Part shown: piece after piece, positions 18,256-47,412 of the stretch
Numbering within the stretch: the stretch's first letter is position 1
Layout of the letters: each line of letters starts with the position of its first letter
Made by a program: the position numbers and the translations under genes
The notes under the pieces: model-generated
Database searches by the model: none
Seen by the model: the letters and a program-made list of their open reading frames with translations, nothing else
What the model was told of the DNA's origin: nothing
NCBI RefSeq assembly: GCF_964204865.1
Contig: NC_135258.1
Coordinates: forward strand, 10,416,001 to 10,480,000
DNA: 64,000 nucleotides
DNA from: Styela clava
Lineage: Eukaryota
Reading direction: 5' to 3'

Positions 18256-19499
18256 CTTTCTTCCAACTGTTATAGCAAACTGTCAGATAAAAAAAAAGAT
18301 GGAGCAATTTTTTTCGTATAATTAATGATAACAATATGAAAAGTTGTTCTATCAACTATGTGAAGAAACTAACGAAATGATTTCTGCCAAATCGTAAAAA
18401 TAAAGAATACGGGTTTCAGTTTGTACATTTGTGGAATTTTTAAAAACGTGATAAGGATGAATTTTCCCGAAATCCGTCATTTTTGGCAATGCTTCATATC
18501 TTCAATCTTAACGAGGCTTTGCCGAAGCTTTCAATCTTACGTGGAAAATAAAAATCTGTGTGAGTTCAGCAAGAATACGCTGTTAGACCAAACACGGTTC
18601 GAAGCCGAGATATATAATCTTTTGTAGCAATGTTAAAGGGCGCAAAGTACGGCCATGTCGGCTTTTAATAACTCCGCGGACTTTTTTGAACCCCCGCACA
18701 TATTAATCTGCCTATGTAGTTCACATATACTTGCTTATCCAATTTTACGCTAACATGCTCTGAACCGAGCTATTTGGTATTTGTACAACTAATATAATTG
18801 CCTCTCAGATTTGGTTTGGGATAGGATTACATTTTTATAGTAGAAAACGAAATGCCGATGATTTGGCAGTGTTGGCAGTGGGATGAGGCTTTGCTCGGGT
18901 TTTTCTTGTGCACGGAGTTCCATATTGAAATTGTTAGAATTGCGTGAATTAAATTCAACAACATAATGGCATTTTCAAAAAAATAAAATCAGTATCCAAA
19001 ATATTACGCTAGAATGAAAAAAATATTAGCTTCAATAGTTTCTTTGAAAGTTCTTGAAGTAAATAAGATAGGCAGACTCGGGTCGCTCTGAGACTCGAGT
19101 TAGTGTCGGCAAAGATCGACATACAATAGCAAAGACCTTCATCGACGGGACGGTGAACATTAGAAGGTTGTTGTTGTATCTATGCAAAAGGGACAGGACA
19201 AAAACTGCACACGTCAAGAAGATGGCCATGGAAAGGCAGCATTTCGGGGAAACGCAGCATTTCGGGGAAACGCAAACTTCAAGTAGCCCTTAGTCGTTTC
19301 TCAACCTACTTAACTAATTCAATAAGTATTAGTTATGAATAAGGCTACTGACGCGTCACCGAAGAATCAGTCCAGAATACCAGTCCTCACGTGGAAGACT
19401 CCAATCAAGAGACCACGTATCGCATGTTTATATGTGATACTTTCAAATACATTTATAGAAATAGTGTTAAATTGGTTCAAAAAAGGGAGGACGGGTCTT

Positions 19500-20426
19500 T
19501 TCAGGGAGAAGGAAAAGAATGAGCCTAATTAAACAAACCCGAAGGAGAAAGAAAAATGTCAGCGAGGCGGAATAGAAACTCCGCCAAGACTTGTTGGAGA
19601 AACAAAAACTTTTTGCCCAAATGCAACGCGAGTTACGGAGCGCCAAAAAGTGATTTCGCAACAGCGCCATAATGGAGCTATTGACTGTGTCGAACTCCTT
19701 CGGGATCGCGAATAATGAGAAAGTGATCAATGACTTTGCAAACAGTTTGAGAAAGAAACCCTTGTTTGAAATACATAGGCACTGCGCCAACTAGATAAAC
19801 AACTGAAGGACGAAATAAGGGAAGACTTAGACTGTTCCGTAATCTCCGGGCTAGATTACCCGAATTCCCCAGGATGATAATGCAAGGCAGCAAGCGTGGG
19901 GCGATGTAGCAAAGGAATTGCAAGAGTTCTGGAATTTGGAGTTTTGGATCAGCAAGCGGTTAAAGCGACCGGCAGAAGCGGGAGATATTCGAGATCTTCG
20001 ACCCATGCTGTAATGTCATCAAACCTCCACCGGTGAATGTGTATAACATACACTCAACAGATTAGGGGTTCGTGCCCTCTTTTGTCATAGAACGAGAAGA
20101 CGAATCGTTACACTCGAACCCTTACTTTCCTAAGAATGTTGATGATGAACGACTGGCGAACAGTCTGAGGAATTCCCCCGTAACACAAGTGGATGGGCAT
20201 CCTGGAATAGAAGGGACCCGCCTCAGCGGACGAGAAATCGTCTGCTATGACAAGCTAAAGAAGAAACTGGGAAAGGCATGGGAAAACCTAGTCAAACTAA
20301 AGAAATATTTGCCCCGGATCGTTTATTACGTGGCTACTGACTAAAAATGGCTGCCGAAGAAAGCGAGACAAGAATTTGAGCTTCTACGGTGTCACCCACA
20401 GACAGGACACCACAAGAATCCCAAGA
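19500..20426 (+). pseudogene. Decayed intronless coding sequence of unknown type, apparently resuming at 25846-26027
   Basis: GC-richer than the flanks; successive codon-like frames broken by stops and frameshifts (e.g. ORF 20072-20344); similar composition resumes right after the 3' LTR. Confidence 0.4.
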
Positions 20427-20427
20427 A

Positions 20428-20876
20428 AAAATATTATAAATTCTAGTGAGTTCTAGCAAAAGAATTCGACCCAAATATTGCACGCAAGTGCATAATTCTC
20501 ATGTGATATGATGAATCACCCCTATTTTACATGGATTTTGCTAGAGGTATCGAGCAAAGACTGGTTGAAGTGTGAAACCTTACAAATATGATCTCATCAA
20601 ACAAAATATACAGCTAACAGCAACCTTAAGAGACTGATAGTTAAATTATTAATAATAGTTTAGAAGTGTAATTTGTTTATGCTGATTTAAATTATTGTAA
20701 TATATTGTCGAAAGAAATAAAATTGTACAGGTAAACCTTTCTGATCCTTGGCTGTTATATCAAATTAACAGAGATCTCAAACTCAACTGAACACGTAACC
20801 TATACTATATTCTGTTTGGAGTCAGATTAATACATAACTAGTTAATTAGTAGTCAGGAAACAAAATTTACGCTTCA
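20428..20876 (+). repeat. 5' LTR (lacks the first ~65 bp)
   Basis: Matches 25398-25845 with about 8 differences counted by eye; ends ...GCTTCA. Confidence 0.93.
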
Positions 20877-20878
20877 CG

Positions 20879-20890
20879 TCGTGACCCCGA
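20879..20890 (+). other. Primer-binding site, tRNA-Trp type
   Basis: TCGTGACCCCGA, 2 bp after the LTR; one mismatch to TGGTGACCCCGA, the complement of the tRNA-Trp 3' end. Confidence 0.8.
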
Positions 20891-20908
20891 ATCTTGGGAT
20901 TTATTACC

Positions 20909-20934
20909 ATGGATCATCGCCAACAATCGTAAGT
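20909..20934 (+). other. Env leader mini-exon and splice donor
   Basis: accATGg Kozak context, ATG GAT CAT CGC CAA CAA TC|GTAAGT; joins in frame to the acceptor AG at 21982-21983. Confidence 0.7.
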
Positions 20935-21074
20935 CTTTTTATTTATTATATAGATAGTTTGGTAGTGCAATTTTGTATTGTTAAAATTTTTCTTGTATTA
21001 TACTTATTGAACCTTGTACCTGTTATTGCTTAGTGTGGGCCAGTTTATATTGTATATTGTACCGTATAAGATAA

Positions 21075-21874
21075 ATGCCAAATTTACAAAAAATGTTTAC
21101 GCGAAGTAAAACTCGTAAAACAGAGAAATTAGGTGTAAATCCTTATCAGTTAACACATCTAACTCCAGAAGTGACCAAAGGAAATGACCCACAATTCGGA
21201 CTCCAAAAATTGAACATTTCTGAACCTAATTTAATTGGAAACGAAATAGACGATAGACATTGGCTGAGCTTGCATATGGTAGAACACTAAGACTCCCAGG
21301 AGACTTAGTGGAAAGTTCTAATATAAGTCAGAATCTTGACACATACAGTTATGCTTCTAAATTAAAACGTTTTTTTGGAACTTTTGAAGCTCTTCCAACG
21401 AGGAAGAAAATAATGAGTAATGTATATATTCCACCAAAGTTATTTACATGTAGTCACGTATTTCAACGAATAGATCACGTAAAGAAATCTTTGCAACCCA
21501 ATTATCAAGGGCCATATGAGGTTATATTTCGGAATAAAACTTGTTTTACTATAAAGAAAAACAGAGGAATTGAAAAAGTTTCCATTAATCAATTAAAACC
21601 AGCCGAAATTAGAATTTTTGATACAGATACAGAAGAACTTTCTTCTACTAAACAAAATGATTTTCCTTCTAAAATAGAAAATTCACCGGTAAAAAAGATT
21701 GTTACTACAGATTATAATAATGAATCAAATTTTTCAGTGGTTACGAATCCGACGAGAGAGGAGACAGAGAAAACCAAAGAGGATCAGAACAAGACCAGGT
21801 ATGGCCGGACAGTACGTCCTCCAATCCGGTACGGTCAGGCGGCAATGTGCCAGATCGAAGAAACCGAAGTGTAA
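21075..21874 (+). pseudogene. Probable gag N-terminus joined out of frame to the integrase C-terminal (GPY/F) region
   Basis: AELAYGRTLRLPGDL...CSHVFQRIDHVKKSLQPNYQGPYEV...VSINQLKPA...TRYGRTVRPPIRY is a typical CsRN1-clade integrase tail. No protease, RT, RNase H or DDE core is present. Confidence 0.85.
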
Positions 21875-21983
21875 AGGACGATGATAAAGTAATCTCCCGG
21901 ACCGATAATTATGACAGAAAACTACTTATAGTCTACGTGAAACATGGGGAAGTTGTTGGAACAGAACATATTGCAGACTTTAG

Positions 21984-24148
21984 GTATTTCTGTTTCTTCT
22001 TACTGCTGATAATTTTTTGCAGTCTACCCTGTTTAAGTCTTCGAACAATGGAAATTTCTGGGTATCATTGCCAGAACGACAAAATAAATCAAGAGTACGA
22101 TATATCCGATCATATGGTTAAATGTCAAGCTAAAATTTATCATGCACCAAAATTGCATACCAAAATTCAAATTCGAGCTTGTCAAACAAGCATAACGGAA
22201 TGGCGAAGCCATTTTTTATTTTTTGGGGGCTAAAACTCATTATACTAAAATAATACCTGGCGTACCAACCGCCAAACAAAATTGCCGAAACTGGTTTGAA
22301 ACCCGCGAATCAAATCAGTTTGGTAAATTTGTTCAGAAAACTAATAATTTGTGGGAAACAGAGAATAAGCCGGTCATAAATTATAAATGGCCTACGGCTG
22401 CTTCGGGAGCAACCGAAAACATTGCTCTAATATACTCCTATGTAATGTACGACCATTTAAATTCGAAAAATATATTTCCACTAGCTGACAGCGCAAATTG
22501 CTCTGTGAATCAATCTGCCTGTCAAATTGGCAGTTATACACTTTTATTTGACGATTCAAAATTTGAAATGTGCCCGAATAAAATGGAAGAAATAAATTCC
22601 TCGCTAACCCTGCATATAAACAACACTAACCAAGTGTTTGCTGTAGAATTGGACGAATTACATATGACTTTTCATTCATTTTCAAAATGTAATGAGTTGA
22701 CGACCAGATGCTTTGGCAGTATCTTCTGTCTAGAAAACGAACTTTTGGTTCAAGCTAATAATTGTAGTTTCTTAGAGAAAGTCGACATGATCCGCAAATT
22801 TGCAGATCATCCCGACATTTCGACAGCTCTGACATTGATGATACAAAATGTCGCTGACTCTCAAACCGAGTTGTCAATGAAATTATAAAGCCAAATTTTT
22901 AAACTCGAATGTAACGCTGAACAACTATTATCTAAAATCTATAAAATCTTGGCGAAAACATACCCTTCTGACGTTTTAAATGAAATTCTGGGGACAAACA
23001 ACTTGTTTGCAGTAAACAGAGGAGACGTAATGGGGGCCCTCTGGTGTCAACCTATAAAAGCGACCATTTTAAACAGCCTAAAATTACCTAACAACCTATA
23101 TTCTACACGTCCTCTGGTTAATTATACTGATATATCTAATAACACCGTGATGGGCCAACTTTTAGGCTCTGGAAGACTTATTCCAGGAATTCATTTTTAC
23201 AGTACCGAACTTCTAGAGTTTGTTACGTTTAAAATAAATAGCACGTATTATAGGTACCAAAAGGGGATCCTGCAAAACATGACCTCCAAACCCAAAAAAA
23301 TCCATCCGTATCTTACAACGAAAAAAATAACTCCTTATGATATAAATTATCTTACTTCATTATCTAAGTTCTTTGAAAACGACTTATCCAGTACCAATGA
23401 TATTGATTCTATGTTAATGTCTATAAATCAGAATTCTGCATTTACCAGAAGTCTGATTGATTATGCGAATTCTTTTAATGACGAAAGTGAAACCACTAGT
23501 GCAAATCCTGCACTCCCCTTGAAAATGCTAGCAAAACATATTACGAACATATTGATATCTTTTTTTAGTGGTATAGGCAATAAGTTTCTTAGTACTGTAA
23601 TTTTAATAGGACTAATCTTGGCTATTGTATTTGCATATGGCAAGACTCTGACTCGGACTGGTAGTGGAGTCAAAAGCTTGGCCGGTCGAAGATTGAAAAG
23701 AAAGCTTCTTGATGAACATTCATCTACTTCCGAAAGGCGTACAAGCGATTCTAGAGATCATGAAAGTCAAAGATCACCAATCCATCGCCGTACCCGCTCT
23801 GATGACCGAAACGGCAATCGTTCAAGAGAAGGGCCCGGGCGTTCGTATTTCACCCCACGGGTCACTCGTAGCCAAGCCTGAGCAAGAGGTGCTCCTGCAT
23901 ATGGGCGAGGCAAATCGGGAAATGCGCAACAAAAAGCACGCGCAAGAAGTCCCATTGAGCAGCCCACTACGGCTCAACCCAAAGCACCGAGCCAAAAAGG
24001 GGCCGAAAGTAGCCTAAATGAAAGTGCGAAAAGTTTAATGGCACGAATCGCACCAGGAATGGCACCAGCTGCCGCCAAATTGGGCACAGCAAGCCAGACC
24101 AAAAATGTGCAGATTGTATCTCTGTCGTCCGATAGCGACAGCGGTTAA
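21984..24148 (+). pseudogene. env: env: glycoprotein-B-like (class III) fusion protein plus basic tail; one frameshift (~22225) and stops at 22886 and 23879
   Basis: Signal peptide, Cys-rich ectodomain with many N-X-S/T sites, gB-like motifs LAKTYPSDVLNEILG..AVNRGDVMGALWCQPI and YSTRPLVNY...GQL, and a C-terminal TM helix FLSTVILIGLILAIVFAY. Confidence 0.8.
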
Positions 24149-25332
24149 ATAAAAATTATTGCTGGTCGTGCGACAAAAGACTTATGACCTGATGAATGAC
24201 AGGTTACGTAATCGAGAAATTATAAACGAGAAATATTGAAGTACTCTTTTCTTGCTTATTTGTCGTGCTTGCATTGTCGCCCTTATGCACAAAAACAAAG
24301 TGCCGCTTTTCATACCAGTTTTATTGTTTCACCCGTGTATCGTGTCTTACGAAATCATGAAAATATGGCAGTACCGACCTCTTTCCATTTTCAAAGTCTA
24401 TAGTCTTGCCTTTCTTTTCTGCTTCGCCTATTTATTGTACGTTATATTTCACTATTTTTTCTCGTCTATTTTTAGTGTATATGATATTCATGCTTATTAT
24501 TATTGAAGTGCCTTTTTTCCCCATTATTTTATTGTTTCTTGTTTTCGTCTAATTATCATGCTTTAGAGTTAGTTGGGGGAGTTTAATAATTTTTTTTACA
24601 AATCCCTAAATAACATTCACTGAAAGTATTTAAAGACCTGAATTTTTAACAGGAATAACCACTGATAACGCAAATAGCAATAAAGCTTTCGTCATTAAAA
24701 GAACCGTTTTGAAAGTTATTTAATCTTTTTTTAGTAATGTCTAAATTAATATAATCGTACATTGAATAAATTCTACTTACAAACAAATTTTAAAGTCGTG
24801 TGAGTGAGAGGAAGGTAATATTAATATGTTACTCTTACTCATCCACGCATTTTGAATCACACCAAAATAAATAACTCTTGAAATAAATTATACAAACAAA
24901 ATTATAAAATTAAAATTATATGTGTTCCCCCCTGATGTGTCTTTATCAATGTTCGATTCCAATGTTGCCTTGATTTTATTACAATTAGTGCTTAAGTAAC
25001 GTTTTATTGTTTTTACTATTTGTGTATATATCTATCAATTGCAGTTATCTTTATTGCTTTATTAATTGTGTAAAAATCTATCAATTGCTGTTTTTGTGAC
25101 GTAATATTACTGATTATCTGACATCCAACAGTTTTTTTTGACTTTACGTTATTGATTGTTTTACATCTTATATTGACATTTCAATTTTATTGTTAAAATT
25201 TTAAATTTGGACCTTTGTGCTTTATTGACATAATAATTCCATCATCATATTGCAAGAGAATTTAGGACTTATACAATTATCGGTTAATTTAGTATGTACC
25301 TTTTAAATATTTCGCATGTGGGCTCGGGAAAG

Positions 25333-25845
25333 TGTAACAAATTAACCAATAATTTTGGATGGATTATATCAATGCTAAATATAATTTCTGACGTCATAAA
25401 ATATTATAAATTCTAGAGAGTTCTAGCAAAAGAATTCGACCCAAATATTGCACGCAAGTGAATAATTCTCATGTGATATGATGAATCACCCCTATTTTAC
25501 ATGGATTTTGCTAGAGGTATCGAGCAAAGACTGTTTGAAGTGTGAAACCTTATAAATATGATCTCATCAAACAAAAGATACAGCTAACAGCAACCTTAAG
25601 AGATAGATAGTTAAATTATTAATATAGTTTAGAAGTGTAATTTGTTTATGCTGATTTAAATTATTGTAATATATTGTCGAAAGAAATAAAATTGTACAGG
25701 TAAACCTTTCTGATCCTTGGCTGTTATATCAAATTAACAGAGATCTCAAACTCAACTGAACACGTAACCTATACTATATTCTGTTTGGAGTCAGATTAAT
25801 ACATAACTAGTTAATTAGTAGTCAGGAAACAAAATTTACGCTTCA
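25333..25845 (+). repeat. 3' LTR (513 bp, TG...CA)
   Basis: Starts TGTAAC directly after the purine-rich GGGAAAG; ends GCTTCA; contains AATAAA. Confidence 0.9.
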
Positions 25846-26027: not shown

Positions 26028-26445
26028 GGGTGCAAATGTACGTGGATGTGAATGTCCGCGGATGCAAATGTATGGGAGTGCAAGTTTTTGCAGGGATGTA
26101 AATGTCCGCGGATGCAAATGTATGCGAGTGCAAATTTTTACGTGAATGTAAATGTCCGCGGATGCAAATGTATGTGGGTGCAAATGTACGTAGATGTAAA
26201 TGTCCGCGGATGCAAATGTACAGGGGTGCAAATGTATGTAGATGTAAATGTCCGCGGATGCAAATGTATGCGGGTGCAAATTTACGTGGGTTCTAATGTT
26301 CATGAGTGCAAATGTACGTGAATGTCAATGTCCGCGGATGCAAATGTATGCGGGTGCAAATTTACGTGGGTTCTAATGTACATAGGGGCAAATGTTCGCG
26401 GGTGCAAATTTACGTGGGTAAGAATGTCCGCGGGTGCAAATGCTG
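26028..26445. repeat. Minisatellite array of ~15-16-bp (GC)GG(G/A)TGCAAATGTA(C/T) units
   Basis: More than 20 variant units, e.g. AATGTCCGCGGATGCAAATGTA recurring. Confidence 0.9.
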
Positions 26446-27239
26446 CAAAAAAGGATTGCTGGACTCGTCTTCGCAGTAAGGTACGGTAGTTTGCGTATCC
26501 CAGTGGTCGGGAAATCTGTAGTAATCTGGCCGGGGACGCTTCACTGAATGAATTTTTTTCCGACATTTGACCCCGGAAAAATTTTCACATTCTAAAATTT
26601 TCGGTGTTTATTTTAAGAGTGGTTTCGCGAGTTGTTGCCTATAAAATGAAGTATTTGCTTCACACTATCATTCTAATTCATACCATTCAACAATCTGTTT
26701 TTTAAAAGTACCGGTAAAGAATTTTAGCCTAGTCTATCACAGCTATTTCTACACTAATTTTTGATCACTGTAATTAAACTGAAACTCCTAGGAGGACAAG
26801 GTGACCATTTATTTAAATTTCCGAAAAACAACTAAAAACTAACAAATATAATTCAAAATCGCGGTAATGTTCACGACCACGCCTGAAAGTCTGTCTAAGT
26901 GAGGAATGTGTCTGAGCGGATGCGAAAGGGGGTACTGTTACGTTTATTTTTGCATCTTGCTGATTAACCAATGTCACGAAGTAAACAAGGAAGTCTTTGC
27001 CAGGGGAAACATCCAAACGGCGGTTTTAACGATGAATTAATTTTATATACTATCTACGCTCGAGGAGTATATTACATTTTTTTACGTAACAGAATTTATC
27101 GTGAGACGTTTGGGCTAAGTTTTATTATATCCTAAAAATTATATTGAACAGCTACTCGTTTAACGAGCCTACAATTTATTTATAATTACACAAATTGAAA
27201 CACGCAGAAAAGTTGATGCTGAGGGCAGGGGTTCAATCG

Positions 27240-28634: not shown

Positions 28635-30428
28635 CTACTTGTTTATTCGTCTTGGCAGATAACTTTGCGTTCCAGATGACAACTGTTGATTGATTTTTCT
28701 TGAGTCATAAAAGTTGATTAGCGAAGATCCGTAAGGATATCTTTTCCACCAGTCCGCGTTAAGAGCATTTGAAGAAGTATATGGTGGTGGTGGTAACGAA
28801 ATCGGAAAATTATTTCCCCATGTATGATAGAAACCAAATATTGGCGTCTGGGTTAATAATTTGGAATTAACGTTGATTTCAGTATTTGACATCGCCTGAT
28901 GTGCAGCAGAATCAGAGTTTTTCGCCAATAGCTGTGAAAACAAGTAAGTATAAATTTATGTAAGAATTATTCAAATCAAAGCGAATTTGTATTGGAGTTG
29001 GAACTTGTCTCTCACCTTCTCTATTGTTCTAATAATGTCATCATCACATCCGTTCAACGTTTCCAGTATTTTGCTTGGAAGAACTGTTGGAAATGTTTGG
29101 ACCAGTACCCGGAACTTTCTGTAGAACAAAATAATGATATTCAATACAAGAAACTACTTTGGAGATTTCAACGTGATAAATTTAATTGTTCTAAATTCCA
29201 AAACATAAATAAGTCAGATTCAGATCCGACATAAAAAAAACTTTCAAAAGCTTCGAAAACGTTTTAAATCCGAGAGTGGTTTTATCGTGGTTATTATTGG
29301 TCATCGTCAGTAATGAATAAAAGCAATGCTCAAGTATATGAACACGAATGTCAAAACATTACTGCGATGTCAGCAAAATTGAGGGGGGGGGGGGGGATTC
29401 GTAGTTCCACTTCGTGGCCAATAAGCTTATAGCCCCGGTGGCAACTGCGGGTAGATATAAAAGGCTGTGAATAATTGCAGCACTAACCTTGATGTTGAAT
29501 TATCATTTGAATCAAAAATATGTGCAATGTCCAATTTTGCTGCATTCTTGGCTTGATTGTTGAATTTAGAACCAGCTCTCAATGGAGTAGAGTGTAGAGG
29601 AGAAATTCGGTCACGCACGTCCTCGGAGCTATTTGAATGTTGTTGTGGAGTCGAGACATCGCTACTGTTCGGGGAGAATGAGAAGCATCCAGAGCTCGTG
29701 GCATCACTTTTGTTTTCTATTTGAATCTCTTCGGAGTGATTATCACTAGGGTTTTTGGTCTCTCTATCTTGTTCTCCGACAGTGTTCTCAGATGCTAGTG
29801 GATGGTAACACTCTTCGGTTTTAACCCTTTTTGATGCTGTTGAAATATCAAGAATTGTTTTAAACGCCGATAATTTTATCAATAGCACAAGATGTTTAGG
29901 ATAGTATATTCACCTTGCATAACTTGAGTGCGTTCTGGGAATAAGTTTCGTTTCCCATTGATCAATCTTGATTCTTGAGCCTGTTGTCGACGAAGTGCAA
30001 CCTGGAATATATAAATGAATTAGTTGGGATTTATGTTGGTGCTATATACATTGCAACCCTACTGCGAATTTATGCTAATTCCAACTTACTTGAGCAGCCA
30101 TGACTCTTTGTCTTTCTGCAATCAAGTTACATTTTATGCATTCGCAATTCTTCCATTTGCAAAACCGTTTATGGCCTTTTAAAATACTGATTTCGCCGTG
30201 ATTTCGACACCTGTAAAATGTTAAATATTTTCAAATATTTCATTCGCCAATTGGCTTCGAAGTAAAAACGTTCCAACGTGACACCTACCTTGCGCATTTC
30301 GGCGCTCTGCTCTGTAGCACACTTTGGTCTCTTGATACACTGGCTTGAGATGAATGGTGTGTGAAATAATACTTCGACCCAATAGGTAAAGCGTAAGAAA
30401 TCGTTTGCTGCTTGCGTTTAGAATCCAT
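28635..30428 (-). CDS. dmrt: DMRT transcription factor (DM + DMA domain), copy A, intact
   Basis: Exons 30428-30289, 30210-30090, 30001-29914, 29836-29488, 29118-29016, 28931-28635. DM: RAPKCAR|[40 protein letters not shown]|[13 protein letters not shown]: [32 protein letters not shown]. Confidence 0.93.
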
Positions 30429-33973: not shown

Positions 33974-35790
33974 ATGGATTCTATCCGTCAGCAACAAATG
34001 TCGCCTTTCCTATCAGATCGCCGTATGAGTTTACTAGGATTGAAAGTCAAGCCATTGCATCAAACGACCAAAGTATCGTAGGCCTACGGAGCAGAGCACC
34101 AAAGTGCGCAAGGTAGCTGTGGTTTTAAGAGTTTGTTGGTGGAGAACGAATAGTTGGGCAATAAACATAATGAATTAATATTTACATTTCACAGATGCAG
34201 AAATCACGGCGAAATCAATGTTTTGAAAGGTCATAAACGTTTTTGTGAATGGAAGAATTGCGAATGTGTGAAATGTAACTTGATTGCAGAAAGACAAAGA
34301 GTTATGGCTGCTCAAGTAAGTTCAAGTTGACCTTAAAACCTTAAAGTAGCTTTGCGACAAACATTGTACCAACACATATTCCAACTAATTCCTTCCAATA
34401 TTCCAGGTTGCACTTCGGCGACAGCAGGCTCAAGAATCAAGACTGGTCATCGAGAAACGAGACTTGATTCCAGGATCTACGGAAGTTATGCAAGGTGAAT
34501 ATTCTGCTTAAAGTAACAAAATTATCGCTCCAGAAGTATGTGTACCAATATGGAGGTACCTAATTTTGTTTGCCTACTTTACATCAAGTTGTGTAAAGGG
34601 ACGGGAGCATATAGGCAGGGGGTATATTCACTTGGCTAACACAAGCAGTCCCCGAAGTCGTAATAGAACTAAATAAGGGAAAATCGGAATGAAATTATTG
34701 GTTGACCCTAACCTGGTACACATACTACGGGAGTACCCAAAATTCTGATATAAATAAATATAGAACTCATGGATATTGTTTTGGTATTTATATAGCATCA
34801 AAAAAGATCAAAACCGAAGACTATATACCTCCACTAACATCCGAAAAGCTAGAGGTGGATACCAACAACACCGCTGAGAAAAATTTCGAAGAGTGCCAAA
34901 GAGAAAACAAAAGTGATACTACAAGTTCTGGATGCTTCTCGTTTTCCCCAAGCAGTAGTAAAGTTTCGACACCGCAAAAATACTCGACGAGTACGGTTGA
35001 TAATTTGTGTGACCGAATTTCACCTGTTCATTCTAGTCCTGTGAAAGACTCAATTGGGGAAAGAAATTCAGAAACAAAGTCGGATGTCCCCAAAGATAAC
35101 TCAATTAGAAGGTGAGTACCGGAAATAAAATATTACTTTAGTTTGGTAGTAAAATAACTTTGTCATATCATTGTCTAACTTAAAATCTGCTAATCGACGA
35201 ATTCGTAACTCATTCGAAAAGTTTTAGTTTGACTAAGTTTTTATCAAGATAGAGGTATATATGTCAAAATATCCAAGATCGAATTTTTTATATTTGTTCA
35301 TGTTGCTTTCATATACAGAAAGTTCCATGTACTGATTCAAGCATTTCCAACAATTCTTCCAAGTACAATACTCGAAACATTGAACGAATGTGATGCTGAC
35401 ATTATCAGAACAATATAAAAGGTGGAGACTAAATCAAATTTTAATAAAAATTCGCACTTCCCAACCCGTTTCTTTCAACAATTTATATTTTTTTTGCAGT
35501 TATTGGAGAAGAAATTAGCTTCCATACCACAACAAGCGATACTATATAAGGATAACAATGTCTATTCAAGAGTCTCACCTCATACACCAAAACTTGATAC
35601 ATATCAAGCACTGAGAAGTAATTTTCCGATATCGTTACCAACAACGTTGACTCCTGCAAATGCTTTCCAAGCAGACATGTGGAGATATCCGTACGGATCA
35701 CCGCTATCAAATTATTATGTCACAAGTCGCATCAATCAAGATTTCTTTTCTGGAACAAAATGTTTTTTGCCAAGCTTACTGAATAATTAA
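33974..35790 (+). pseudogene. dmrt: DMRT copy B: full exon set but frameshifted and carrying a nonsense codon
   Basis: Exons 33974-34112, 34195-34315, 34407-34494, 34796-35111, 35319-35421, 35500-35790. A 4-bp deletion near 34003 relative to copy C gives TAG at 34079 before the DM domain; TAA at 35416-35418 in the DMA exon. Confidence 0.85.
34525..34737. mobile_element. Longer member of the GG...CC MITE family in dmrt B intron 3
   Basis: GCTCCAGAAGTATGTGTACCAA ... CTGGTACACATACTACGGGAGTACC; flanks CAAAATTA / CAAAATTC; absent from the same intron of copy C (~40390). Confidence 0.75.
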
Positions 35791-45807: not shown

Positions 45808-47412
45808 ATGGATACTTTCCATGTACAGCAGTTGCCATACGTGTATCCCAGTGGAATCTACAAGAATAACGGACATGTGAGTCAAAGCAGTCTACCAAAC
45901 GATCAAAGTAATGTACCCAACAGAGCACCAAAGTGCGCAAGGTAAGTAAACTGTTTTCTATTTTCTATTAACTATGCCGAAATGTTGGACCTGTTTCATT
46001 AAAAAAATCTTGAATCTACAGGTGTCGAAATCATGGTGAAATCAATGTTTTGAAAGGTCATAAACGATTTTGCAAATGGAAGAATTGCGAATGTGTCAAG
46101 TGTAACTTGATTGCAGAAAGACAAAGAGTTATGGCTGCTCAAGTATGTTCGATTAATTCAATTTTTTAGTTCTTGTTTATATCATAACACATCTTTTGTT
46201 TACTTAAATATACATTTTTATATATTGTAGGTGGCACTACGTCGACAACAAGCTCAAGAATCGAATCTAATCAATGCAAAACGTTTTAATTTATATGCAG
46301 AGTGCACTGACGTTGTGCAAGGTTACTATTTTTTTTATCTTGTATGAATTTTTGCCAATAAATTTACAGCAAAATTCATCATTCCAATATATCTTCACAG
46401 AACCCAAGCGAATCAAGATTGAAAGAGAATTTTTCACGCCGACATTTGATAAGACTTGTATGGATTCGCACTTGGATAAGAACAGTGCTTGGACGGAAAT
46501 AACCAATAAATGCAAAACCACAAATAACAGTGATACAACTTCAGGATGTTTCTCATTATCTCCGACCAGTGATGCCTCGACTACTCCAGATTACTCGAGC
46601 ACAGTTAATGATAAATTTGGCCACGTTTTGCCAGTTCATTCTACTCCAGTGAGAAATTTTCCCAAACTAGGCCAAAGAGATAATTTGGAAATAGAACGAG
46701 ACAACTCATCCTACATTGAACCCTGTGAAAATTCAATAAGGAGGTAAGTTCATAGAAAATATCATATTAAAATTCTGGATAGTGCGATTAACGATTGCCA
46801 ATGACGAAGGATTATGTATATTCTAATATTTTTTGATATCTCGTTCTTTTTATTGCAGAACGTTCCAGGCATTGGTTCGAACATTTCCAACAATTCTTCC
46901 AAGTACGATTCTTGAAACATTGAACGAATGTGATGATAATGTTATCAAAACAATGGAAGAGGTGAGGAAACGCACGCTGTTTGAATATTTAAAGTTAATA
47001 TGTAAACTTCAAAAAAAAATCTATAAAAACTAGTTAATGTATCAATTAATGTATTTTCTATAATCCAACTCTTCGAGATGAAATTTGTTTAATACTAATT
47101 TGATTTATACTCAGTTTTTTTATTTCCACAATCAGCATTGCAAAACCTCTAACATGAATTGACTTTAATTTTTTTCAACAGTTATTGAAGAAAAGATCTT
47201 ACTCAACAGAGTCACTGGTTACAGAAAATGCAAATTCTAAAGTATTTTCTCGCCTACCAAAGCAGTTTTGTTACCCGCAATTGCTGAGCTATAATTCACC
47301 AGTTTTACCAACGGCGTTCAACCCATCGAGTTTTTTCCAGACAGACTTGCTGAAAAGATATCCATATGTTCCTTCATATATCAACCCCTTTTCAAATGTT
47401 CAAAAAAATTGA
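45808..47412 (+). CDS. dmrt: DMRT copy D, intact
   Basis: Exons 45808-45941, 46022-46142, 46231-46321, 46401-46743, 46859-46961, 47182-47412; DM and DMA domains intact. Confidence 0.93.

Follow-up and report, generated by a model that had tools for sequence, protein, structure and literature searches.

A decayed Ty3/Gypsy provirus of Styela clava with CsRN1-type marks and a predicted gB-like envelope, likely a new family of a published ascidian group

The stretch of DNA analyzed here, which we call the window, comprises 64,000 nucleotides of the Styela clava genome (assembly GCF_964204865.1, contig NC_135258.1, forward-strand positions 10,416,001 to 10,480,000). Positions 20428-25845 of the window hold a dead, internally deleted Ty3/Gypsy provirus, all features of which lie on the plus strand. 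We consider it very probable that this copy has CsRN1-type marks and a predicted class III envelope (env) resembling herpesvirus glycoprotein B (gB), and that it is likely a new member of an ascidian gB-type group already in print. The provirus is bounded by a left long terminal repeat (LTR; 20428-20876), placed by repeat alignment and comparison with other copies, and a complete right LTR of 513 bp with TG...CA ends (25333-25845), placed by comparison with other copies. The direct repeats 20428-20876 and 25398-25845 are identical in 441 of 449 columns (98.2%), in agreement with the ~98% given in an initial annotation of the locus, whose right LTR boundary we corrected. The left LTR lacks its first 65 bases, so the target duplication is unreadable in this copy; the lost bases were not found elsewhere in the window.

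A primer binding site of tRNA-Trp type follows at 20879-20890, as initially annotated, with one mismatch here and an exact match in sister copies L019, L025, and L034; no tRNA genes were found in the window. Behind it lie a leader mini-exon (20909-20934; ATG at 20909, splice donor GTAAGT at 20929, phase fitting the env acceptor) and a gag 5' stub of about 60 codons (21075-21257) that matches the N-terminus of the sister gag. The stub is fused directly to the integrase tail across the junction of a ~4.3 kb internal deletion (21258-21268), which removed most of gag, the protease (PR), the reverse transcriptase (RT), RNase H (RH), and the integrase (IN) core. Ten of the 11 junction bases are common to the donor and acceptor sides, as would be expected from a template switch or microhomology repair. 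What is left of pol (21257-21874) is the C-terminal integrase part, which includes a basic tail and the GPY region. Its identity to the sister pol is 70%, and it confirms the annotated integrase tail.

The env gene comes next and is broken into pieces. Its 5' part (21738-22233) has an acceptor before 21738, the leader, a second donor at 21984, a hydrophobic signal segment near 21970-22040, and the start of the ectodomain, with a frameshift at its end; no ATG lies upstream of the signal segment in this frame. Domains I-II (22196-22888) retain eight of the ten cysteines of the group, are 82% identical to the sister env, and end in an in-frame stop. The following piece (22889-23881) encodes the central helix, the crown domain, the transmembrane (TM) helix (23585-23641), and the first part of an arginine-rich tail, and the rest of the tail (23882-24148), cut off by a stop, has a final hydrophobic-acidic motif common to the sister family. 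The defects are a gap of 30 nt (near 22111), a frameshift where a homopolymer run (near 22205-22230) codes for the first predicted fusion loop, and stops at 22886-22888 and 23879-23881; the 59 DNA reads on this stretch are too few to tell breaks from assembly error. Of the ~550-amino-acid (aa) glycoprotein initially described, the signal peptide and TM helix stand, but the single frame does not, being split by frameshift, stops, and gap. A long AT-rich 3' untranslated region (24149-25319) and a plus-strand primer position (25320-25332), purine-rich and with no clean polypurine tract, complete the element.

A search of the 377-Mb genome with the C-terminal half of env gave 105 candidates, 92 of which were matches. 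Three other copies of the subfamily to which the window copy belongs (92-97% protein identity) were examined and all are decayed, and env or pol is broken in the majority of all copies examined. The sister family, A, is 75% identical to the window copy in nucleotides and 79% in amino acids, and includes the full-length copies that the initial annotation had proposed to look for, with open frames for gag (445 aa), pol (1256 aa), and env; the env frame runs 788 codons from stop to stop and includes a leader of 80 aa and an arginine-rich tail of 140 aa. The LTR pairs of five family A copies are 100, 99.7, 99.6, 99.2, and 95.6% identical; the recent activity claimed for the locus fits this family, with four of five pairs at 99.2% or above, better than the decayed window copy. 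Target duplications of 4 bp were found in all five family A copies whose flanks were examined. The 25-base overlap between gag and pol is in the -1 frame, and pol has the order PR-RT-RH-IN (RT 276-434, RH 501-615, IN 840-1007). Its family matches are RVT_1, RT_RNaseH_2, and Integrase_H2C2, and its best match in the PDB was Ty3 Gag-Pol (3e-90). A BEL/Pao identity was rejected: the sister pol matches include no Pao families and are of Ty3 type instead.

Related env frames occur in families B (666 codons), C (699), and D (700); env identity among families A to D is 27-30%, except for B and C at 50%. Families B and C have a CHCC gag and a full pol, and family F is a CHCC element without env. Family E (L081-L084, L098), an RT neighbor of family A, is multi-copy, with a pol of 1167 aa, LTR pairs of 99-100% identity, a CX2HX9CX4C gag variant, and an env reduced to a stub of domain I. 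One family-B-type env frame (L092:1373-3055) is found downstream of a pol whose gag is of CCHC type; the two are probably not genuinely paired but the result of a nested insertion. Env fragments in an advanced state of decay, with 30-40% identity and many stops, form clusters and tandem arrays at G000:C14:21.3-21.6 Mb, C16:18.97-18.99 Mb, C20, and C42. In families B and C, the last residues of the env tail are LYP-x-L (L037:3919-5916, L047:3995-6091), unusual at this place, which we take to resemble an ALIX-binding late-domain motif.

CsRN1-like elements are defined by a Trp primer site, a 4-bp duplication, and the Gag motif CX2HX9CX3C (PMC2582038), and family A has all three. The motif, accompanied by DUF7041 in family A, is present in families A, B, and C and in L028, a copy of the window's subfamily, and is deleted in the window copy. 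Judged by these marks, the family of the window element would belong to Ty3/Gypsy elements of CsRN1 type. Family A also has the GPY integrase tail and the -1 gag/pol overlap of the published clade (CsRn1, PwRn1, AgCR, Kabuki, Boudicca, Saci-3; PMC2582038). It differs in its class III env, whereas PwRn1 and the AgCRs have no env (PMC2582038). The initial statement that the clade usually lacks env is half right: Boudicca and Saci-3 have an env-like third open reading frame, which the accessible text of PMC2582038 does not describe as gB-like.

To characterize the envelope, we built a profile from a 108-row alignment (97 of 135 relatives, 10 genome frames, and a read-through of the window copy). 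All 58 PDB matches listed at E ≤ 1 are class III glycoproteins: 54 are herpesvirus gB (best 3.3e-24), and four are chains named 'Glycoprotein', matched in the fusion-domain region at 4e-9, which we presume to be rhabdovirus G. The Pfam family Glycoprotein_B was matched by 45 of the 108 alignment members (E ≤ 0.001). A model of the sister ectodomain (predicted local distance difference test score, pLDDT, 79.7; predicted template modeling score, pTM, 0.49) returned gB of human cytomegalovirus first in Foldseek (3.7e-19), and VIA-align gave a Z of 13.7, with gB domain IV at Z 13.1 and 3.3 Å over 172 residues. The model places hydrophobic loops at a hairpin tip (YFFGA, model residues 68-72) and in a second loop (YKWP). 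Env has ten cysteines at spacings 19-34-72-7-17-39-7-6-12; identity of the window pieces to the modeled sister protein is 82% and 70%, with the cysteine spacing kept. The gB-like motifs noted initially lie in 22889-23881, the piece that the profile search aligned with gB domains III-IV, and the proposed check for a structural match to class III fusogens came out positive in both profile and Foldseek searches.

The family A env is accordingly predicted to be a class III (gB-like) membrane fusogen. It would share with gB and other class III fusogens (rhabdovirus G, chuvirus, and nyamivirus G) the domain order, the long central helix, the crown domain, and the bipartite hydrophobic loops. It differs in sequence, with 9-20% identity, in an ectodomain without a furin site, and in an element without a gH/gL partner. 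An F-type (class I) env as in insect errantiviruses was rejected, given the class III fold and an ectodomain lacking R-x-K/R-R, and we discarded a single-sequence fold of the window env with X at its stops (pLDDT 34).

Several observations weigh against this picture. The window env pieces fall below every Pfam cut-off (six window frames; best E 0.016-0.026), the sister ectodomain alone has no Pfam match at E ≤ 0.001, and none of the five env frames with a fusogen-family match reaches the family cut-off. Global template modeling scores are low (0.27-0.36), with root-mean-square deviations of 13-17 Å for post-fusion chains; with a pTM of 0.49, the domain packing is therefore not reliably modeled. 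The CsRN1 and ascidian-group placements depend on diagnostic features and env similarity, the tree described below having no named CsRN1, Kabuki, Boudicca, or published ascidian pols. Even so, the CsRN1-type marks and the class III fold together support the initial description of a CsRN1-like Gypsy element with a gB-like env.

The initial annotation had gone further: in its reading, a CsRN1 element without env had recently and independently acquired a class III glycoprotein from a virus, founding a new lineage. In a viral library, rhabdo-like, herpes, entomopox, nyami-, and chu-like proteins tie at 1e-20 to 1e-18 and no protein exceeds 16% identity to env; because of this tie, 'gB-like' names a fold and not a donor, and from such matches the viral donor of env cannot be named. 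In the ESM Atlas, the ectodomain found Monjiviricetes/rhabdovirus glycoprotein clusters at 0.90-0.94, a weak result with low recognition (1172). A recent capture would fit the split of the viral matches over rhabdo-like, herpes, poxvirus, nyami-, and chu-like proteins, the existence in this genome of a family (L085, L086) that has a CHCC gag and a Trp primer site and lacks env, and the fact that the main text of PMC13524379 names neither CsRN1 nor Kabuki. However, the best viral identity of at most 16% compares with ~35% and the same cysteines in a published ascidian env, the genome has at least four env families at 27-50% identity, and env-bearing pols branch below env-less ones. We regard a recent capture as highly improbable, and it is already largely refuted.

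Much of the setting had been described by Chary and Hayashi (eLife 2026, PMC13524379; bioRxiv 10.1101/2023.10.26.564294), who collected 1512 env-bearing Ty3/Gypsy elements, found gB-type env to be as abundant as F-type, and argued for an ancient origin (PMC13524379). This breadth in Ty3/Gypsy contradicts the initial view that gB-type env occurs mainly in BEL/Pao. Their supplements list nine ascidian Ty3/Gypsy elements, all nine with ENV_HSV and in a common RT clade T, of which Clep_errantivirus_1 has an exact Trp primer site (PMC13524379). We compared family A env by hand with the published Amen_errantivirus_1 (Amen_1): all ten cysteines correspond, and the Amen_1 spacings (19-34-72-7-17-40-7-7-12) are equal at seven of nine positions and off by one at two. 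In domains I-II, 52 of 150 ungapped positions are identical, inside the 33-41% of the four within-group pairs compared. Given these published elements and the Amen_1 match, the window element is likely a new family of the published ascidian gB-type 'errantivirus' group. Family A shares with the Tunicata C3 env group of RT clade T (Clep_errantivirus_1, Amen_errantivirus_1; PMC13524379) a tunicate gag-pol-env Ty3/Gypsy organization, a gB-type env, the ten domain I-II cysteines, the YFFG and Y-WP motifs, the Trp primer site of Clep_1, and a similar LTR size (778 versus 774 bp). An env identity of ~35% sets it apart as a distinct family, and the main text of PMC13524379 has no match to CsRN1 or Kabuki and does not treat splicing, accessory, or cytoplasmic features. 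Of ten env relatives looked up, one was informatively named, from Phallusia.

On the env side the family thus joins an already described gB-env lineage, with domain I-II cysteines as in Tunicata C3 (PMC13524379). The observation made in the initial annotation was partly confirmed and its interpretation partly supported; its claim of novelty was not supported, the new lineage by the nine published elements, one with the exact Trp primer site, and the independent capture by env families only 27-30% identical and by the branching of the pols. The literature searched, which left most subscription journals outside and included PMC8220671 and PMC4402516 as background sources, contained no prior report of CsRN1 with a gB env or of a Rev-like spliced product in Gypsy elements. 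The combination of a tunicate host, a Gypsy element, a gB-type env, and a Trp primer had been published before; new here are the CsRN1-like marks of gB-env elements, their branching below env-less relatives, the spliced env RNA, and a candidate second in-frame splice. The env also appears old in Styela clava, several families sharing it under purifying selection, and the env-pol pairing likewise seems old rather than freshly captured. Between subfamilies, dN/dS is 0.09-0.10 for the ectodomain and 0.12 for the integrase; among near-identical copies, where changes are few, the value is higher (0.23-0.45).

The order of branching was examined in two RT/RNase H trees, a quick one with 65 of 136 rows and a second of 39 rows, made after dropping six long or redundant rows and thinning unnamed matches, and rooted at the midpoint. 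The RT tree proposed in the initial annotation is thereby available with a restricted set of rows: named CsRN1, Kabuki, or Boudicca proteins were absent from the 120 matches listed in each of two pol searches, and published ascidian pols are not among the rows. In the 39-row tree, the 33 rows of CHCC/DUF7041 type form one clade (100/99). Families A and E branch first within it, then the env-bearing B and C (99/91 with the crown), and the env-less F lies inside the crown; the 65-row tree has the same order. Family A RT is 38% identical to that of an env-less CHCC family of the same genome. These relationships raise the possibility that the common ancestor of all CsRN1-like (CHCC) elements had a gB-type env and that the crown group lost it, so that classical env-less CsRN1 elements would be reduced retroviruses. 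The env stub of family E, despite LTR pairs of 99-100% identity, would then be a loss in progress, and the env-like frame of Boudicca and Saci-3 (PMC2582038) would fit as well. Yet a single clade of env-bearers is not rejected by the approximately unbiased (AU) test (p 0.056), the database rows were chosen by likeness to family A without scoring of env status, the root is a midpoint, and family A has an odd composition. Env exchange between pol lineages of one host group, allowed in PMC13524379, would give the same pattern. We consider an ancestral env possible but doubtful, and as an addition to the best explanation, a CsRN1-type member of the ascidian gB-type group, not an alternative to it.

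The window copy also bears on how env is expressed. The env acceptor at 21738 is in phase with the ATG at 20909, which lies 20 bases before the GTAAGT donor, and family A is arranged alike; the leader mini-exon would therefore supply the env start codon. Two integrated family A copies, L034 (893-6116) and L016 (1096-5997), carry, between LTRs that are nearly identical, a junction of the leader with the env acceptor that is exact to the base. Both are env-only proviruses consisting of LTR, primer site, leader-env junction, env, and LTR, and L034 has 99.7% identical LTRs and a 4-bp duplication. Spliced env RNA was thus reverse-transcribed and integrated, presumably in trans, and because two integrated copies hold the exact junction, we conclude that env is made from spliced RNA. 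The phase of leader ATG, donor, and acceptor is kept in two subfamilies 25% apart, and the leader donor is also used in a contig of one sequencing run. Spliced env has parallels in Drosophila gypsy and in the Oikopleura Tor elements (PMC4402516), tunicate Gypsy elements with env in which Tor3a joins a donor near the gag start to an acceptor upstream of env. The Tor3a donor is GA instead of the GT found here, Tor3b and Tor4b use an internal promoter (PMC4402516), and Tor4b groups with F-type env elements (PMC13524379).

We also searched for splice joints on one family A copy in contigs of three runs from three studies, presumed to be RNA, whose contig depth is no measure of level. Fifteen joints were found, seven of them with GT..AG ends on the element strand and one of these seven also in DNA reads. 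Two joints occur in all three presumed-RNA runs and not in the thin DNA run: one links a donor inside pol with the env acceptor, and the other skips 1689 bases in frame, beginning immediately ahead of the signal segment and ending immediately past the TM helix. The sides of the joints are only 20-30 bases, below our 31-base bar, and we treat the joints as leads. Several alternative acceptors within the ectodomain are used in the same contigs. A pol-internal joint at L101:4706 to 3628, present in all three runs, keeps the pol frame and removes the integrase core; by analogy with Tor3b, it could also mark an internal env promoter.

The skipped form would give a soluble protein of ~225 aa made of the acidic leader and the arginine-rich tail. 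The tail has 27 arginines and no lysine in 140 residues, and its terminal hydrophobic-acidic motif, kept in both subfamilies, presumably resembles a SUMO-interacting motif. In the window's subfamily, the post-TM acceptor of the skip is also reached by a contig from a further run, from a different donor and with a shorter side of 252 bases. No genomic copy with the second splice was found, and the eight full tail matches among ten all adjoin the ectodomain. L027 and L075, which are more distant copies, showed neither the post-TM acceptor nor the end motif, the env tails of families B, C, and D are short and not arginine-rich, the tail evolves fast (dN/dS 0.5 over 69 codons), and it had no usable ESM Atlas match. 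For Rec of HERV-K and Rem of MMTV, the env leader is spliced a second time, to an exon farther downstream; this skips the fusogen, and the product is arginine-rich. The likeness is one of architecture (second splice, env leader, arginine-rich product); no sequence or structure likeness was found, and in family A it is the env tail, read in the env frame, that serves as second exon. Family A might act like a complex retrovirus, its doubly spliced RNA giving a soluble nuclear protein of ~225 aa that acts on the element's own RNA like Rev, Rec, and Rem. A CsRN1-like lineage with a perhaps ancestral gB env would then possess an accessory regulator; we think this quite unlikely.

Host splicing noise is a live rival to such a regulatory short protein. 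It forms part of an account in which env was once functional, the family now spreads only within cells, and the extra splices are the work of host splicing, mostly destroying env and integrase messages. The broken env or pol of most copies examined, the alternative ectodomain acceptors, the pol-internal splice that drops the integrase core, and the dN/dS of 0.23-0.45 on few changes among near-identical copies all suit this account. Against them stand the strong purifying selection on the ectodomain between subfamilies, the open env frames in families A, B, C, and D, and the conserved phase of leader ATG, donor, and acceptor. On balance, purely intracellular spread seems unlikely.

Other features of the window and genome were recorded alongside the element. 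Its left flank (19300-20427) is a separate low-copy repeat adjoining the truncated left LTR, with 11 matches of 68-79% outside the window, and immediately to its right is a minisatellite with a 16/32-base unit (26028-26465). Three related minus-strand frames with a common SGCFS.SP motif (29427-29909, 34693-35115, 46271-46747) appear to be a locally repeated exon or gene family. Elsewhere, an intronless short-chain dehydrogenase frame (L046:5218-6006) lies in a 3.2-kb tandem duplication adjoining the left LTR of a family C element. An intron-split cellulose synthase at G000:C9:16177457-16180164 (L079, L080) is followed, 2 kb downstream and in the same orientation, by a GH6 domain and served as host marker; a fusion of CesA and GH6 is a tunicate marker.

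For the CsRN1-type member of the ascidian gB-type group that we favor, the life cycle may be pictured as follows. From LTR-driven genomic RNA, Gag would be translated and also, through a likely -1 frameshift, Gag-Pol; tRNA-Trp would prime reverse transcription, and integration would produce the 4-bp duplication seen in sister copies. Env would be translated from RNA in which the leader mini-exon behind the primer site is joined to the acceptor at the pol end, as in the two integrated copies. The modeled Env would be a glycosylated trimer with two hydrophobic fusion loops, by which particles would move from cell to cell, likely out of the soma into the germ line, as Drosophila gypsy does.

The locus adds testable detail on element workings that PMC13524379 left open, among them an env message that is spliced and itself copied back into the genome. 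If the second in-frame splice is true, it would yield a fusogen-free, arginine-rich protein, possibly regulatory. With env-bearing, env-stub, and env-less CsRN1-like families in one genome, Styela clava offers a natural series for env ancestry and loss.

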